A stretch of DNA of 64,000 bases, from IMG/VR virus record IMGVR_UViG_2687453522_000001. One strand, written 5' to 3'. A program made the translations under genes and the position numbers. Below the pieces are notes generated by a model. It saw only the letters and a program-made list of their open reading frames with translations, was not told the origin of the DNA and did no database searches. Origin of the DNA: a virus. Lineage: Duplodnaviria > Heunggongvirae > Uroviricota > Caudoviricetes. Below are positions 51,893 to 57,625 of the stretch, piece after piece (the first letter of the stretch is position 1; each line of letters starts with the position of its first letter).

Positions 51893-52144
51893 TTGTCGCT
51901 GGTGGTAACGATGGGAAAAATAACTTTTGTAGTCGAATTTGAGGATGGTAAAGAGCCACCTGTTAGCGCCAATCTTGATGTTGCTGGTGGCAGGCTTGTT
52001 TCGGTTCTATTTGGTGACTACCGAGATGATTTCTTCCAACCAGAAGAAGTTGATGTGGTGCGAGAGGCATTAAACGAGTTAAGTGTTGATAACGATGATG
52101 CTCATGCGGAAATCATCCAAAAAATGGAACTGCTAACTCACTAA
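51893..52144 (+). CDS. Small hypothetical protein
   Basis: 83-aa acidic ORF. Confidence 0.4.
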   Translation: MSLVVTMGKITFVVEFEDGKEPPVSANLDVAGGRLVSVLFGDYRDDFFQPEEVDVVREALNELSVDNDDAHAEIIQKMELLTH

Positions 52145-52235
52145 ATTATCAATTATGGTGCTATCACCTACGACACCGAGAGAAAATTTATAATGTCAAA
52201 AGTAAATGTTTTGATTTTTTCAGTAATTGTAGGTT

Positions 52236-52616
52236 TTGGTTTTTCTGCTGGAGTGCATATTTATATTACGTGGGAAAAAATCATCAACTACGTATGGAGT
52301 TGTTTTATTAAGTGAGGTAAGTATGTGGAGAGGTAATAGTCATGGCAAAAGCCAGATGATACTTACCGAATATCAGTTTGACCATAAAACCAATAAATCA
52401 CGTTCAGTATATTTGCTTCGGCACAATAGCCGCGTAAGGAATACCGTGCTGGAACAAAATCTGACAGTTGAAATAGATAATTACGGGGGCTTCAAGCCAA
52501 CAATTTCGCTTGATGATTTTCCTCGTGGTTTAAGCGAAAGAGAAGCAATGCTGAAATTAGCAGAATGGCTACAAAGATTAAGCATTGCTATTGAAGATAA
52601 CTGGTCTGAACCTTAA
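52236..52616 (+). CDS. Hypothetical protein in AT-rich segment
   Basis: 126-aa ORF, real start may be the internal ATG near 52323; AT-rich. Confidence 0.35.
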   Translation: MVFLLECIFILRGKKSSTTYGVVLLSEVSMWRGNSHGKSQMILTEYQFDHKTNKSRSVYLLRHNSRVRNTVLEQNLTVEIDNYGGFKPTISLDDFPRGLSEREAMLKLAEWLQRLSIAIEDNWSEP

Positions 52617-52622
52617 ATTTAT

Positions 52623-52997
52623 ATGATGACACTAAAACATTTTCTTGACCGCCCATTATGGGCGGCAGCCGCAGGCTATGACTTTAATTATATGGATTGC
52701 ATGTCTTATACTGCCAATGCATACGACCATGCGTTCAGCCTGCTGTTTAATTCTTTAAGAATATTGCCGGAAACAGAAGTTGGAGAGCTTCATTTATGGA
52801 TATTGAGCTTTATCGCGGCAGTCGTTGGTATTGCTGTATGGCCTTTTATTTTCTGGCTGGTGGCTGTTGTAGTGTGGTTTAAGTGCAAGACATACCGGAG
52901 AAAGTATTTCTTAGGTGATGGAATGACCGATATTGCCAAAATGAACATTGAAAAATGGACTAAGGAATGTGAAAAGAAATGGCGCAAAAAGAAATGA
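52623..52997 (+). CDS. Small membrane protein in AT-rich segment
   Basis: 124-aa ORF with hydrophobic helix LWILSFIAAVVGIAVWPFIFWLVAVVVWF. Confidence 0.4.
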   Translation: MMTLKHFLDRPLWAAAAGYDFNYMDCMSYTANAYDHAFSLLFNSLRILPETEVGELHLWILSFIAAVVGIAVWPFIFWLVAVVVWFKCKTYRRKYFLGDGMTDIAKMNIEKWTKECEKKWRKKK

Positions 52998-53911
52998 CCA
53001 GAATCACTGAAGAGCGTATATCAGAGATTATTTCCCGTATCGAAATGTATGGTCACGGTGCTGGATATACGGCAGATGAAGTATTGGCACTTGCCCAAAT
53101 GGCTTTGGCGGCTTGCAAAGATGATAAAAAAATGAAGCTTATCGACTTGTTAGTGAAGGAGCTGCCTAAGTGCGGCGGGTGGCCTGATGGAATGAGTTAT
53201 TGTTACCTACCCAGTGTCAATTTAATGGCACCATGCGCGACTTTTGCTTTTGGCTCAGACCACAAAAAAGACACTTTCTTTGGGCGCAATTTTTGTTGTG
53301 AGATTGAGCTTCCAATTGGTGACCTTGATAGCGATGAATACCAGTCAGTTGTCACTCGCGAACAATACGAATCAGCTCTCATAGCGTCGCAGAAAGTCGA
53401 GTTCAATGGTGATGAACTTGAAAGTAAGACTTACAGGTTGGATTTTGGGCAATGGCTGGAACAGCAACGCGGGAAAATCGATGTGGACTGTGGTTGTGTG
53501 TCCACTGAAACATTCATGCACTGGCTGCGGGTAGCTTACGAGGCTGGCAACTATCCGGATATTCCGGATAGTTCGGTGCCAGGGCCAGGAAAGGGCGTCA
53601 CCGGTGAACGTATCCGCATTAAACCGCATGTTTATCGCGAACTGGTTAACCGTCTCCACGATACAGCGATCAAGTGTGCTGGCACCCAGCAATTACGAGA
53701 AAGAATTAGCCGTGTTTTGGGCGACGTTATTACACCAGATCATCATAAACAAGCCGAGAAAAGTGGCCTGGAAAGGTGTCACCTTGAGGCGGCATTAAAC
53801 ATTAAGCCGGGGCATACGCTTGGCATTATTGATGCACTATTGGTTCATAAGATGGCCAGGGCTTTATTGCCGCTGGTGGATGCTGGCGATACAAGCGAGG
53901 GTGAAGTATGA
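52979..53911 (+). CDS. Hypothetical protein
   Basis: 310-aa ORF overlapping neighbours at both ends. Confidence 0.45.
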   Translation: MAQKEMTRITEERISEIISRIEMYGHGAGYTADEVLALAQMALAACKDDKKMKLIDLLVKELPKCGGWPDGMSYCYLPSVNLMAPCATFAFGSDHKKDTFFGRNFCCEIELPIGDLDSDEYQSVVTREQYESALIASQKVEFNGDELESKTYRLDFGQWLEQQRGKIDVDCGCVSTETFMHWLRVAYEAGNYPDIPDSSVPGPGKGVTGERIRIKPHVYRELVNRLHDTAIKCAGTQQLRERISRVLGDVITPDHHKQAEKSGLERCHLEAALNIKPGHTLGIIDALLVHKMARALLPLVDAGDTSEGEV

Positions 53912-54270
53912 GAGTTGCAGATCACATCAAACACCTTGAAAGAATTATCGAAAACGGTGAACTCTTAAGAGATCAGATGAGACGCACGGCAGAAGTCAGA
54001 GAGGCGATAATCCGCAGTCAGGCTGGTAAATTAAAGCAATTATCAGAGATTAACGCGCTATACAAGAACAGACGTAACCGGGCGGCGCTGCGGCTTCAGA
54101 AAGCACGTAATGAAATTAAATTGGTGGAGGCAAAACTGAAAAAACAGATTCAGCGTTACGATCAGCAAGATGCTTTTTATGCCGCCATCAAGGCGGCTGC
54201 TAATGAAATAGGCATCTGGAAGTTGCTGGTGGAGAAAGCAAAGACGAAGTTAAATGCCAACGAAAGCTGA
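53908..54270 (+). CDS. Coiled-coil small protein (hypothetical)
   Basis: 120-aa ORF, charged helical. Confidence 0.45.
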   Translation: MRVADHIKHLERIIENGELLRDQMRRTAEVREAIIRSQAGKLKQLSEINALYKNRRNRAALRLQKARNEIKLVEAKLKKQIQRYDQQDAFYAAIKAAANEIGIWKLLVEKAKTKLNANES

Positions 54271-54344
54271 ACTACAGGTACCCACCAGCACATACAGAAA
54301 ATGATTGTTTCCACATCAAGGAGATTTTAATGTTTCACTGAACA

Positions 54345-54482
54345 TTAAGTAAGCCAGTGCATAATTCCATTTTTTACTGACCTTAAAAGCAAAATCAAAA
54401 CGATGATGAGGATGATCGCCAGAATCTGGCTAATAACAGGCGCATCTAAAAATGCACTCAGGAACTGAAAAAAAGCAGTCAT
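54345..54482 (-). CDS. Small hydrophobic peptide (45 aa), possible membrane toxin or holin-like peptide
   Basis: Minus-strand ORF MTAFFQFLSAFLDAPVISQILAIILIIVLILLLRSVKNGIMHWLT; AGGAA about 9 nt upstream of the ATG; not in the supplied ORF track because of its size. Confidence 0.35.
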   Translation of the reverse strand: MTAFFQFLSAFLDAPVISQILAIILIIVLILLLRSVKNGIMHWLT

Positions 54483-54931
54483 TAAGGTGGTTCCTTGTCA
54501 AATGTAAAGGAGCACTTGCTCACGTTGACGTAGAAACCCAACCCCTATATAGTTGGATTCGGTGAAAGAAAGTCGTTAACGTGAGCTTACGGCACATGTT
54601 TTCGGAACAACATCAGGGAACGGCTAATTCCTTGATGCGGATGGGGTCTGTAATGCAGACCCTATCTATTAACGTCATGATTGCATCTCAAATTTTCTCC
54701 TTATCTTCATTAATCAAAATTCATTTCATTTGTGAAACATCACAATATTTAGAAAATGGCCCTCTTGCAAGTGCATAACTTTGTGGATAAATCAGGAAGA
54801 AAAAAGTTGATTCTGCGCACGGCAAGGCAGATAAGCTGTGCACAAAAATCAATGGGAAAAGAAAAAAAATTAAAAGTTACTTTGCTGGTTAAATAATAGT
54901 CGTTACGCAATTGTTCTGGATGGGATTTGAT

Positions 54932-55183
54932 ATGCACGATTGGAATATTGCAGCTAAAAGTCAGGAAGAACGGGATAAGGTTAACGTTGATCTGGCTGCC
55001 AGCGGTGTGGCGTACAAAGAGCGATTGAACATACCTGTCATAGCTGAACAGGTAGCCCGCGAGCAACCAGAGAATCTGCGCACCTATTTCATGGAACGGT
55101 TACGGCACTATCGGCAGTTAAGCCTCCAGTTGCCAAAAGGGAGCGATCCGGTGTATCAGAACGAGGATGCACCAAAAAAATAA
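54932..55183 (+). CDS. hot: Hot, homologue of DNA polymerase III theta subunit
   Basis: 83 aa from ATG 54932; [36 protein letters not shown] closely resembles E. coli HolE as recalled. Confidence 0.8.
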
Positions 55184-55270
55184 CGGCAAGATGGGGGAGA
55201 AATGTGATTAGCCCCCAGCGTGGCGCGCCTACAAACCCCGCTTTCACAAACTATGCCTTTTCAATGTATA

Positions 55271-55286
55271 CTGTATGAATAAACAG
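55271..55286 (+). promoter_or_regulatory. LexA (SOS) box upstream of humD
   Basis: ctgtatgaataaacag fits CTGT-N8-ACAG, 20 bp upstream of the humD ATG. Confidence 0.7.
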
Positions 55287-55306
55287 TATCATTGAGGTAA
55301 AACGCT

Positions 55307-55696
55307 ATGGGCTTCCCTTCTCCTGCGGCGGATTATGTTGAAAGCCGAATTTCTCTTGATCAGCAGATAATTAGACATCCTTCAGCGACCTACTTCATGC
55401 GGGCAGCTGATAGCCATCACCGTGAGGGAATATTGCAGGGTGCTTTGCTGGTGGTTGATTCCTCGCTTACTCCGGTTGATGGTTCTCTGCTTGTGTGCGC
55501 TATGGAGGGTGAATATCGCATAAAGAGATACAGGAAGTATCCGCGCCAGCACCTGGAGGATTTAAGCACCGGGAAGAAAGAGGCGTTACCAGTAGATGAC
55601 GATGGATACACGGGCAGTAATGCTGTTTTTGGTGTGATCACTCATGTCATCAATGATGCCCGAAGTGGGGAATTTGATGATTGTCCGGTTATTTAA
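55307..55696 (+). CDS. humD: HumD, UmuD-prime-like translesion synthesis accessory protein
   Basis: 129-aa ORF corresponding to the LexA/UmuD C-terminal protease-fold domain without the cleavable N-terminus; LexA box upstream. Confidence 0.85.
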   Translation: MGFPSPAADYVESRISLDQQIIRHPSATYFMRAADSHHREGILQGALLVVDSSLTPVDGSLLVCAMEGEYRIKRYRKYPRQHLEDLSTGKKEALPVDDDGYTGSNAVFGVITHVINDARSGEFDDCPVI

Positions 55697-55737
55697 GCTG
55701 CAAAGTGCTGGTGCTTTATGCCTGTGAAGTTTATAAT

Positions 55738-55764
55738 TGTGTACACATAACGAGTACACGAGGT
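55738..55764 (+). promoter_or_regulatory. phd-doc promoter/operator with palindromic Phd-binding sites
   Basis: ttgtgtacacataacgagtacacgagg contains GTGTACAC-type palindromes just upstream of phd. Confidence 0.5.
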
Positions 55765-55768
55765 GTTT

Positions 55769-55990
55769 ATGCAATCCATTAACTTCCGTACCGCGCGTGG
55801 CAACCTTTCTGAAGTGCTCAACAATGTTGAAGCCGGGGAAGAGGTTGAAATCACCCGCAGAGGCCGTGAGCCAGCAGTAATTGTCAGCAAGGCTACTTTC
55901 GAAGCCTACAAAAAAGCGGCGCTGGATGCTGAATTTGCATCCCTGTTTGACACCCTGGACTCCACCAACAAGGAACTGGTTAACCGATAA
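55769..55990 (+). CDS. phd: Phd antitoxin
   Basis: 73 aa from ATG 55769 ([39 protein letters not shown]...); stop overlaps doc start. Confidence 0.9.
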
Positions 55991-56370
55991 TGAGGCATAT
56001 ATCACCGGAAGAACTTATTGCGCTTCATGATGCGAATATAAGCCGCTACGGCGGCCTGCCGGGAATGTCTGATCCGGGTAGGGCAGAGGCCATTATCGGG
56101 AGAGTTCAGGCCAGAGTTGCCTACGAAGAGATCACCGACCTTTTCGAAGTCTCCGCCACCTACCTGGTGGCTACAGCGAGAGGGCATATATTCAATGATG
56201 CCAATAAGCGTACCGCGCTAAACAGTGCGCTGCTATTTCTACGCCGTAACGGGGTGCAGGTATTTGATTCACCTGAACTGGCAGACCTTACTGTAGGCGC
56301 TGCGACTGGCGAGATATCTGTATCTTCTGTCGCCGACACGTTACGTAGATTGTATGGTTCTGCGGAGTAG
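55990..56370 (+). CDS. doc: Doc toxin (Fic-fold kinase)
   Basis: 126-aa ORF with Fic-like [11 protein letters not shown] motif. Confidence 0.9.
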
Positions 56371-56374
56371 ATTA

Positions 56375-56554
56375 ATGGCACGCAAATACAACAAATTGTC
56401 CCGTGAAGCGTTAAAGATGCTTCTTGATGGCGTGAGTCGCCGCAAGGTAAAGCAATACCTGGTTGGTAAGCAAATTGGAGTCAGGACCGCTATTGCTGTG
56501 TTATGCCGTCAGGAAATGGTTGTGCTTAAACAGAGAATGCCGGGCAGCAGATAA
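56375..56554 (+). CDS. Small protein downstream of doc (P1 pdcA position)
   Basis: About 59 aa from ATG 56375 (MARKYNKLSREALK...). Confidence 0.45.
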   Translation: MARKYNKLSREALKMLLDGVSRRKVKQYLVGKQIGVRTAIAVLCRQEMVVLKQRMPGSR

Positions 56555-56581
56555 AGCCCAATCAGTGATTAAAGGTGTGAT

Positions 56582-57625
56582 GTGAAAGCCGTAATTACTC
56601 CCTTTGTACAGAAAGAGCTTGGCCTCGCCACGTTCAAAGTGGATCAGGAGGTCAGAAAGCTGGTGGAGGCTGGCCGTAAATTTATTATGGAGCCGGTGCC
56701 GCGTGAGTTAATCGAGCACATGGAAGACGGCCTCGTTGTTACCGAGCAAACCATGGCAACAAATGAGGCGTTGCAGCCGTTTTTTAACAGCGATGAACTG
56801 TTTCGCCGTATTGGTGGAATTGACGCGCTGGTGGCGTGGTTGCGTAGGAAAGAGGGTCAATGCCAGGCCGCAGATCGTAGTTGGTGTGACAACCATATTG
56901 TCCACGCTGAACGAGACAATAGCGCGGTGTTGTTGTGCTGGCATCACGATAACCATTACCGGATGCGTGGTTTTAATGAGCTGAAAGAAACGCTGCATAA
57001 TAATCGCGTTAACTGGATACTGGATGTCGCCCGTCAGGAAATGGGGCTTTCAGATGGCCATGATTTAAGTATTCAGGAACTGTGCTGGTGGGCTTTCATG
57101 CGCAACATGATGCACCTGATGCCGGAAGAAGTTTGCCGTATATCAATAAATAAGATGAAAGCCGCAACGCAGGATAGCGGACCTCTGAAAGAGGCGGATA
57201 TTCGCCCGTATGACGATCGCGCTACAGCATATGTTCAGATGATGGAAGAACGCGCCGCGCCGATGCGTGCAAAAGTATGCCCTGTGGATGTTGACTCCGA
57301 CCCTGGCATGGCGCATTTCAAAATACCAAAACTTCAATCGCTAAAATTGCCCGAGTACATGGATTTTGTGGCTTCCCGTCCATGCTGTGGCTGTGGAGCT
57401 GCGGGAGCTGGCGCTCACATTACGCCTTATATCGTTCGTCATAGTCGATTATGCGCGCATGACATTTATGCTATTCCTCTGTGCCAGTCATGCCAGCGTG
57501 ATATTGAGCGTGACCGCGATAATTGGGAGAAGACGCACGGTAGGCTGGCGATGCATCAACGATTGTTCTTTGATTACGCGCTTGGAGTCGGCGCTATCAC
57601 AAGTCATTCGTCGAGCGTTAGATAA
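56582..57625 (+). CDS. Cys-rich protein downstream of doc (P1 pdcB position)
   Basis: 347-aa ORF with GTG start; several Cys/His clusters ([19 protein letters not shown]). Confidence 0.5.

Follow-up and report, generated by a model that had tools for sequence, protein, structure and literature searches.

A candidate type I toxin-antitoxin-like module with an nrdA-like promoter in the pmgV-hot gap of P1-like phage-plasmids

In ldr/rdl and hok/sok, both of them toxin-antitoxin (TA) pairs of type I, the toxin is preceded by a long 5' untranslated region (UTR), the antitoxin RNA overlaps this UTR rather than the ribosome-binding site (RBS) of the toxin, and the leader contains an open reading frame (ORF) of its own (PMC4147584). 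The locus described here lies within a stretch of 64,000 nucleotides (nt) of a Caudoviricetes virus (IMG/VR record IMGVR_UViG_2687453522_000001), hereafter the window, and comprises a minus-strand ORF of 45 amino acids (aa) at 54345..54482, its long predicted leader, a promoter resembling that of the host gene nrdA, and a putative antisense RNA on the opposite strand. The window is a P1-like phage-plasmid; over 54200-54950, it shares 98.8% identity with phage P1 (NC_005856, 85846-86597) and 99.6-99.9% with phages JL22 and vB_EcoM-813R1. We propose, with a probability of roughly 0.45, that the locus is a type I TA-like module of the ldr/rdl or hok/sok design without sequence relation to either. 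An earlier note on this DNA had pointed to a membrane peptide with a structured leader of the kind on which an antisense RNA could act. That interpretation is partly supported and is considerably sharpened by a promoter for the mRNA, an antisense promoter inside the repeat, an upstream ORF (uORF) in the leader, and the probably spurious nature of the upf genes annotated in this gap.

With ldr/rdl (LdrD/RdlD), the locus would share a small single-transmembrane (TM) peptide, a long 5' UTR, a cis-antisense RNA that lies over the UTR and off the toxin RBS, and a small leader ORF, which in that system (ldrX) is proposed to be the real target of the antitoxin (PMC4147584). However, the peptide here has 45 aa rather than 35, the promoter appears to be derived from host nrdA, and the element resides on a phage-plasmid; moreover, the locus has no Ldr_toxin match, no Rfam rdlD match, and no DNA similarity to the E. 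coli chromosome beyond the nrdA promoter. The resemblance to hok/sok (pnd, srnB) lies in the mobile element, the structured leader, and the upstream ORF as the likely control point (PMC4147584), to which the single-stranded 5' tail of the predicted antisense RNA, apparently aimed at a leader loop, may be added. Contrary to mok, which overlaps the toxin ORF, the uORF here stops at 54613, about 130 nt before the ATG at 54482, and the locus shows neither a Hok match in Pfam nor a Sok match in Rfam, nor evidence of 3' processing or fold-back elements.

A long UTR with an RNA that acts far upstream of the toxin RBS is also characteristic of tisB/istR-1, zorO/orzO, shoB/ohsC, and dinQ/agrB (PMC4147584), a group in which toxin transcription is likewise tied to a host regulator, namely LexA there and a DnaA/nrdA-type promoter here. 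In that group, the RNA comes from a divergent gene and its complementarity covers only about 20 nt, whereas a true cis-antisense RNA is predicted for the present locus; no significant direct or short complementary repeat of the TisB/IstR-1 type was found in 54200-55000, and Rfam gave no match. The same phage carries, about 1.3 kb away, the type II addiction module phd/doc (phd 55763-55990, doc 55990-56370), which employs a protein antitoxin and a Fic-family kinase toxin and has no sequence or mechanistic kinship to the locus.

The 45-aa ORF encodes MTAFFQFLSAFLDAPVISQILAIILIIVLILLLRSVKNGIMHWLT, exactly as quoted in the earlier note, and begins with an ATG preceded by the Shine-Dalgarno (SD) sequence AAGGAA at 54496-54491, with 9 nt between AGGA and ATG. 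The AGGA is kept in all three known alleles. The peptide reaches a maximum of 3.08 in a Kyte-Doolittle window of 19 residues, and an ATG-initiated ORF of at least 30 aa with an equally hydrophobic 19-residue stretch arose in 0.05% of composition-matched resamples of the gap. AlphaFold2, run on the single sequence, predicts two helices, at residues 2-12 and 15-44, with a kink between them at D13-A14, directly ahead of P15, and a mean predicted local distance difference test score of 88. As had been claimed, the ORF has the appearance of a genuine gene for a single-TM peptide: in 3/3 alleles, neither its start, stop, and length nor its SD is lost, and the hydrophobic helix persists; in size (<60 aa), hydrophobicity, and its one TM segment, the peptide resembles the type I toxins. 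The gene had also been called unannotated, and this is correct for the P1 reference, which lists only upfM, upfN, and upfO in the gap. Elsewhere, the Prokaryotic Genome Annotation Pipeline calls it in some RefSeq plasmids as WP_000123562.1, 'hypothetical protein', and every database name for the ORF is 'hypothetical'.

Membership in a known type I toxin family was examined with Pfam and Rfam and was not found. The Rfam scan of 52000-57000 at E <= 1 returned 0 matches, and neither of the alleles searched matched Pfam, including Ldr_toxin (PF13940) at E <= 10, while LdrA and LdrD as positive controls matched Ldr_toxin at 1e-24 to 1e-27 (86-94 bits). NCBIfam and PADLOC gave no meaningful match to the peptide. 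The best PHROGs match was to a family of unknown function (E = 0.056), and no holin family matched in either PHROGs or Pfam; as the gene also lies outside the lysis genes, the comparison of the peptide with small holin-like proteins gained no support. Kinship with Ldr was considered and rejected: a local L-APVI--ILA likeness to LdrD (8/15 identical) is no more than a lead, and the peptide fails the Pfam model.

Using tblastn, the ORF was found in 13 phage records and in 228 plasmids (PLSDB) of Escherichia, Salmonella, and Shigella, in the form of three alleles: the P1 type, the P7 type with 2 aa changes, and a type 3 with 58-60% protein identity (for example, CP057430 and CP036204). Conservation of the reading frame in related genomes, on which the earlier note had made its claim depend, is observed in that the ATG, the TAA, the 45 codons, the AGGA of the SD, and the hydrophobic helix are retained in 3/3 alleles with zero indels, and the substitutions between alleles are conservative (I/V, I/L, L/F, K/R, D/N). 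Wider relatives were sought by a protein word-index search and exhaustive HMMER searches of 1.84 billion representatives, which gave only the three alleles and rare copies of them that are cut short or frameshifted. Likewise, IMG/VR (searched with the DNA pattern and the peptide), the GTDB species genomes (peptide), and the JGI/ENA metagenomes yielded no allele beyond P1, P7, and type 3, and the inverted-repeat pattern gave only random matches in unrelated phyla among the GTDB species genomes. Judged by these searches, the module is an orphan confined to P1/P7-like elements. In rare database entries of the peptide (P0001, P0002, P0009, and P0010; C-terminal tail, 54345-54400), the frame shifts or breaks off after residues 31-37; for P0001, a frameshift at or close to the A-run around 54368-54373 would fit the break, and such copies may be assembly errors or inactivated copies.

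The promoter from which the peptide mRNA is predicted to start is chimeric. In GenBank M95666, the sequence of the phd/doc paper, an 'nrdA-like promoter' and a DnaA box are labeled on the minus strand at window positions 54752-54807. A blastn comparison with 5,426 complete E. coli genomes explains this label, since 54752-54858 matches the ypaB/nrdA upstream region of every chromosome with 82-83% identity. Alignments extend the nrdA-homologous stretch, which comprises the upstream control region and the -35 element, over 54752..54866 on the minus strand; its K-12 counterpart occupies positions 578-707 of the record L006. The identity to the K-12 nrdA upstream region amounts to 82.6% for the P1 allele (115 bp), 94.6% for P7 (130 bp), and 77.8% for type 3. 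The homology stops at one junction (...CATTTTC, 54752) in 3/3 alleles, yet the identity is highest in P7, which suggests one ancestral capture of the nrdA promoter and a later re-conversion by host DNA in the P7 lineage.

Within this region, the DnaA box TTATCCACA (54782..54790, minus strand), located both by pattern search and by the M95666 label, is invariant in all alleles and in K-12, and a second, imperfect DnaA box TTATGCACT (54778-54770, minus strand) overlaps the -35 element within the nrdA alignment. The predicted promoter of the peptide mRNA (54742..54770, minus strand) consists of a -35 element TTGCAA at 54770-54765, which aligns with the K-12 nrdA -35, a 17-nt spacer, and a -10 element TATTGT at 54747-54742. 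The latter reads TATTGT, or TACTGT in type 3, so that T1, A2, and T6 are kept at the 17-nt spacing. The transcription start site (TSS) of the peptide mRNA would lie near 54735, consistent with the nrdA transcript, which starts about 110 nt before nrdA. Between 54735 and the ORF, the scan of the minus strand found no other promoter-like site and no terminator-like site. The locus is homologous to the E. coli nrdAB promoter over 115-130 bp, a stretch that takes in the -35 element, both DnaA boxes, and the upstream control region and is oriented to the downstream transcript as in nrdAB. The homology ends just before the -10 element, and the transcript would encode the 45-aa peptide instead of ribonucleotide reductase. 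The part of the nrdA promoter beyond this end, in which the NrdR boxes presumably sit, is thus absent from the shared stretch.

From the position of this promoter, a 5' leader of about 250 nt is predicted (54483..54735, minus strand), with a fold of -66.9 kcal/mol (z = -2.4). It contains a strong SD, AAGGAG, at 54702-54697, followed by a mini-ORF with its ATG at 54686 (MQS* in P1, M* in type 3) and a 21-codon uORF (54678..54613, minus strand) whose ATG overlaps or abuts the mini-ORF stop. The uORF is open and of constant length across the alleles, while 6/21 of its residues differ; what counts would thus seem to be that it is translated, not which peptide it yields. Downstream lies a conserved core (54516..54612, both strands), which holds the inverted repeat and an inner hairpin at 54534-54560. 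The imperfect inverted repeat that had been noticed earlier is present, with arms of 13 nt at 54518-54530 and 54574-54586 that are 12/13 complementary and 43 nt apart, and it falls in the 5' leader of the ORF as proposed, provided that the annotated nrdA-like promoter is used. The single mispaired position reads A.C in the minus-strand RNA but G.U in the plus-strand RNA. Because a repeat of equal quality occurs in 25/300 composition-matched resamples of the 700-bp region (about 8%), the repeat alone proves little. In the predicted mRNA stem-loop, the repeat forms the base, and of the 10 bp in the inner hairpin, three are G.U pairs on the minus strand. Substitutions in the core are few and map to predicted loops.

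Comparison of the P1 and type 3 alleles segment by segment shows 77% identity in the nrdA-like upstream region, 44% in the TSS-proximal part, 96% over the SD AAGGAG and the two start codons (54701-54676), 86% in the uORF body, 92% in the core (54612-54516), 67% from the core to the peptide SD, 78% in the ORF, and 65% in the 3' flank; from 54604 to 54518, just two differences occur. By this measure, the leader is the most constrained part of the locus, above the ORF. A 25-codon ORF over the core, MCRKLTLTTFFHRIQLYRGWVSTST (54597..54520, minus strand), is also open in all alleles; it has no SD and too few substitutions to judge coding, and it is treated here as a by-product of conservation at the nucleotide level.

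On the plus strand, the conserved core contains a near-consensus promoter, TTGACG-17-TATAGT (54525..54553), which agrees with the sigma-70 consensus at 10/12 positions, has its TTGACG inside the left repeat arm, and has a predicted TSS near 54560. The same site is independently predicted in NC_005856 as 'PupfN', and both TTGACG and TATAGT are invariant in 17/17 distinct sequences recovered. The putative antisense RNA, of about 115 nt (54560..54675, plus strand), for which both ends are estimates, would have a single-stranded 5' tail and three stem-loops, and would be fully complementary to the leader across the 21-codon uORF and the 5' repeat arm. The plus strand of 54560-54680 folds with -44.6 kcal/mol (z = -5.2; 0/200 shuffles as good), and the minus strand with -32.3 kcal/mol (z = -3.25). 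Over the transcribed part, the plus strand exceeds the minus strand in stability by 11-14 kcal/mol in 3/3 alleles, with 7-8 G.U pairs; in the promoter-only part (54516-54562), it is the minus strand that folds better. Such a pattern would be expected from the existence of both RNAs. The predicted RNA ends with a GC-rich hairpin of 13 bp (54640..54666, both strands) followed by TATCTATT; in the predicted antisense fold, the sequence 3' of this hairpin is UAUCUAUU. In type 3, the hairpin shows one compensatory change from U-A to C-G and two from G.U to A-U. In sequence, the 5' tail of the putative antisense RNA complements an interior loop of 13 nt that is left unpaired in the predicted mRNA stem-loop, and a contact between tail and loop is the usual start of antisense RNA pairing. 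The suggestion that an antisense RNA could act at this leader thus gains from an invariant promoter inside the repeat and from the unusually good folding of the RNA predicted to start there.

What the sequence shows is the ORF with its conservation, the homology of the promoter, the uneven conservation along the locus, the motif of the antisense promoter, and the folds as predicted. From these features, we infer a working model that covers both transcripts and their ends, the translation of the ORF, a toxic action of the peptide, and the way in which it would be repressed. The chimeric promoter, with its upstream region, DnaA boxes, and -35 element from host nrdA and a -10 element of the phage's own, would fire leftward from about 54735 and produce an mRNA whose leader of about 250 nt presents the strong SD, the mini-ORF, the 21-codon uORF, and the conserved stem-loop before the SD and ATG of the peptide. 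The plus-strand promoter in the conserved core would make the stable antisense RNA, the 5' tail of which may pair with the unpaired interior loop of the mRNA stem-loop while its body covers the uORF. This pairing is postulated to block translation of the leader or ribosome loading and/or to trigger cleavage of the duplex. Peptide synthesis would stay off as long as the phage-plasmid is present and the antisense RNA abundant, and the nrdA-type promoter would tie the supply of mRNA to the DnaA and replication state of the host.

Several observations weigh against this model. Neither the peptide nor its surroundings matched a family of type I toxins or antitoxins in the libraries searched. The signal for coding is weak: the 31 nucleotide differences within the ORF are split 11/8/12 over the codon positions, the ratio of nonsynonymous to synonymous substitution rates (dN/dS) is 0.45, and the chance retention of start, stop, and open frame has P = 0.13, or ~0.055 when the open frame and the TM helix are considered together. 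The covariation in the terminal hairpin is not significant either, as 87/500 shuffles reach the observed score (five distinct sequences). Both signals are weak because only three alleles were found, a number with which a real covariation or dN/dS test is impossible. The strand asymmetry in folding has p ~0.06 against composition-matched shuffles, and composition explains about half of it. According to the terminator scan, the terminal hairpin is not a canonical terminator, so that the plus-strand transcript might continue towards hot. Sequestration of the peptide SD is predicted to be partial, with partners that differ by allele. In RNA sequencing (RNA-seq) of lytic P1vir infection at 10 min, the upfN interval has a value of 4.9 and upfO 1.5, which fits transcripts within 54560-54735 and equally well decaying read-through from pmgV; these values are given per annotated gene, come from lytic infection, and are strandless for this question, and thus cannot discriminate between the models.

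On the main rival reading, which we regard as somewhat less probable than the TA-like module, the ORF is a real gene for a small membrane protein with a regulatory leader and not half of a TA pair. The peptide would then be a non-toxic accessory factor, such as a modulator of a host membrane protein or an exclusion or defence factor, expressed in step with host replication, and the plus-strand promoter would be incidental or serve hot. The evidence on the ORF, the promoter, and the leader fits this reading equally well, and many small single-TM proteins are not toxic. The setting is compatible with it too: the accessory region that holds the locus is among the eight that a comparison of 77 genomes found to be highly variable in P1-like phage-plasmids (PMC9603915), and one type 3 copy adjoins a type I restriction-modification system. 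What a non-toxic peptide leaves unexplained is the invariant near-consensus promoter on the opposite strand, placed in the best-conserved stretch of the locus, together with the strong folding of the antisense strand.

A fortuitous ORF appears less likely still. Here, the conserved element would be non-coding, either as a promoter and 5' UTR directed towards hot (the 'PupfN' transcript) and/or as a DnaA-linked control of divergent transcripts, and the minus-strand frame would be open by chance in a T-rich strand. Such a reading would account for a leader that is better conserved than the ORF, for the lack of a canonical terminator between the plus-strand promoter and hot, for the constant adjacency of hot in the copies examined, and for the modest statistics of the ORF given above (P = 0.13, a dN/dS of only 0.45). 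However, composition alone would very rarely produce so hydrophobic an ORF (0.05%), the SD, ATG, stop, and TM segment persist despite 31 substitutions, which are conservative ones, and the nrdA-derived promoter points to the ORF and not to hot. In addition, the value of upfO, which lies between the core and hot, is far below that of upfN in the lytic RNA-seq, which is weak evidence against strong read-through. Far less probable, and largely refuted, is the reading in which the annotated plus-strand genes upfM (54452-54565), upfN (54581-54778), and upfO (54756-54896), all of function unknown in NC_005856, are the real genes of the gap and the source of its conservation. Apart from that annotation, it can draw on upfM having its own PHROG, which was made from P1-like records. 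All three are broken by stops or frameshifts in type 3 (CP057430, CP036204), upfN is frameshifted in P7 as well, and none has a Pfam match, whereas the 45-aa ORF is the sole frame in the left half of the gap that survives divergence. Furthermore, upfN and upfO are non-essential according to CRISPR interference (CRISPRi) knock-down and deletion data (PMC10695390), and upfM, which was outside the CRISPRi test set, is called non-essential from the deletion survey cited there. Since these ORFs are broken in the divergent allele, the published plus-strand annotation is probably wrong, and upfM, upfN, and upfO are probably not genes.

The gap itself measures 0.6 kb between pmgV and hot, and NC_005856 places in it, besides the upf ORFs, predicted promoters and the late promoter LPhot. 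The neighbors of the 45-aa ORF are pmgV, hot (54911-55183, plus strand), and humD, and hot was adjacent to the locus in every copy examined; the ORF and hot are divergent, not co-directional. To the right of hot, the window differs from P1, in which a 573-nt lxr gene lies between hot and humD. The window is without lxr, and 124 bp separate the end of hot (55183) from the start of humD (55307); the C-terminus of Hot is also unlike that of P1. The hot-humD spacer (55184-55306) still has a LexA box, TACTGTATGAATAAACAGTA, at about 55269-55288.

Another nrdA-like promoter is located beside humD in pLF82-like phage-plasmids, namely pECAZ162_2 (L007, 1200-1830), L148, and L147. In pECAZ162_2, there come after it a strong terminator for both directions (1379-1405), a direct repeat of 20 nt (1440-1459 and 1613-1632, 95% identical), and a hydrophobic ORF of 27 aa, MVNLLFKIVPPMFAIIKAIIEYVNQRP (1708-1790), which has a separate terminator. 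In a Citrobacter plasmid, the repeat and the leader motifs are retained, with a diverged hydrophobic ORF of 26 aa. The layout suggests another type I TA-like locus, unrelated to the one in P1 and of the divergent small-RNA design known from tisB and zorO. Homology between its leader and that of P1 was considered and rejected, as only the 10-mer GTGCCGTAAG is common to both (54585-54594; L007, 1611-1620; not significant, p ~0.1); in each of the two loci, about 85-100 nt separate this 10-mer from the small hydrophobic ORF downstream.

Literature searches on upfM/N/O, on the nrdA-like promoter in P1, and on type I TA systems in P1-like phage-plasmids found no description of such a module. We therefore put forward, tentatively and at somewhat less than even odds, that P1 carries an undescribed orphan type I TA module beside phd/doc, in which a captured nrdA promoter, re-converted by host DNA in P7, would couple a toxin to DnaA and replication, with a cis-antisense RNA as its check. 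Few phages have been studied as much as P1, and P1-like phage-plasmids often carry resistance genes in E. coli and Salmonella. If the proposal is true, a 20-year-old annotation would be corrected, as upfM, upfN, and upfO are probably not genes, and a second, RNA-controlled stabilization or stress module would stand next to phd/doc. It would also be a clear case of a mobile element that captured a host cell-cycle promoter, that of nrdA with its DnaA boxes, for a membrane peptide, and it would offer a testable tie between the replication status of the host and a phage-encoded toxin. Should the peptide prove non-toxic, the locus would still add a small membrane protein to those known, one whose antisense-bearing leader is conserved to an unusual degree; if the transcripts and the toxicity are confirmed, the module would represent a new variant within the type I TA kind, outside all known families.

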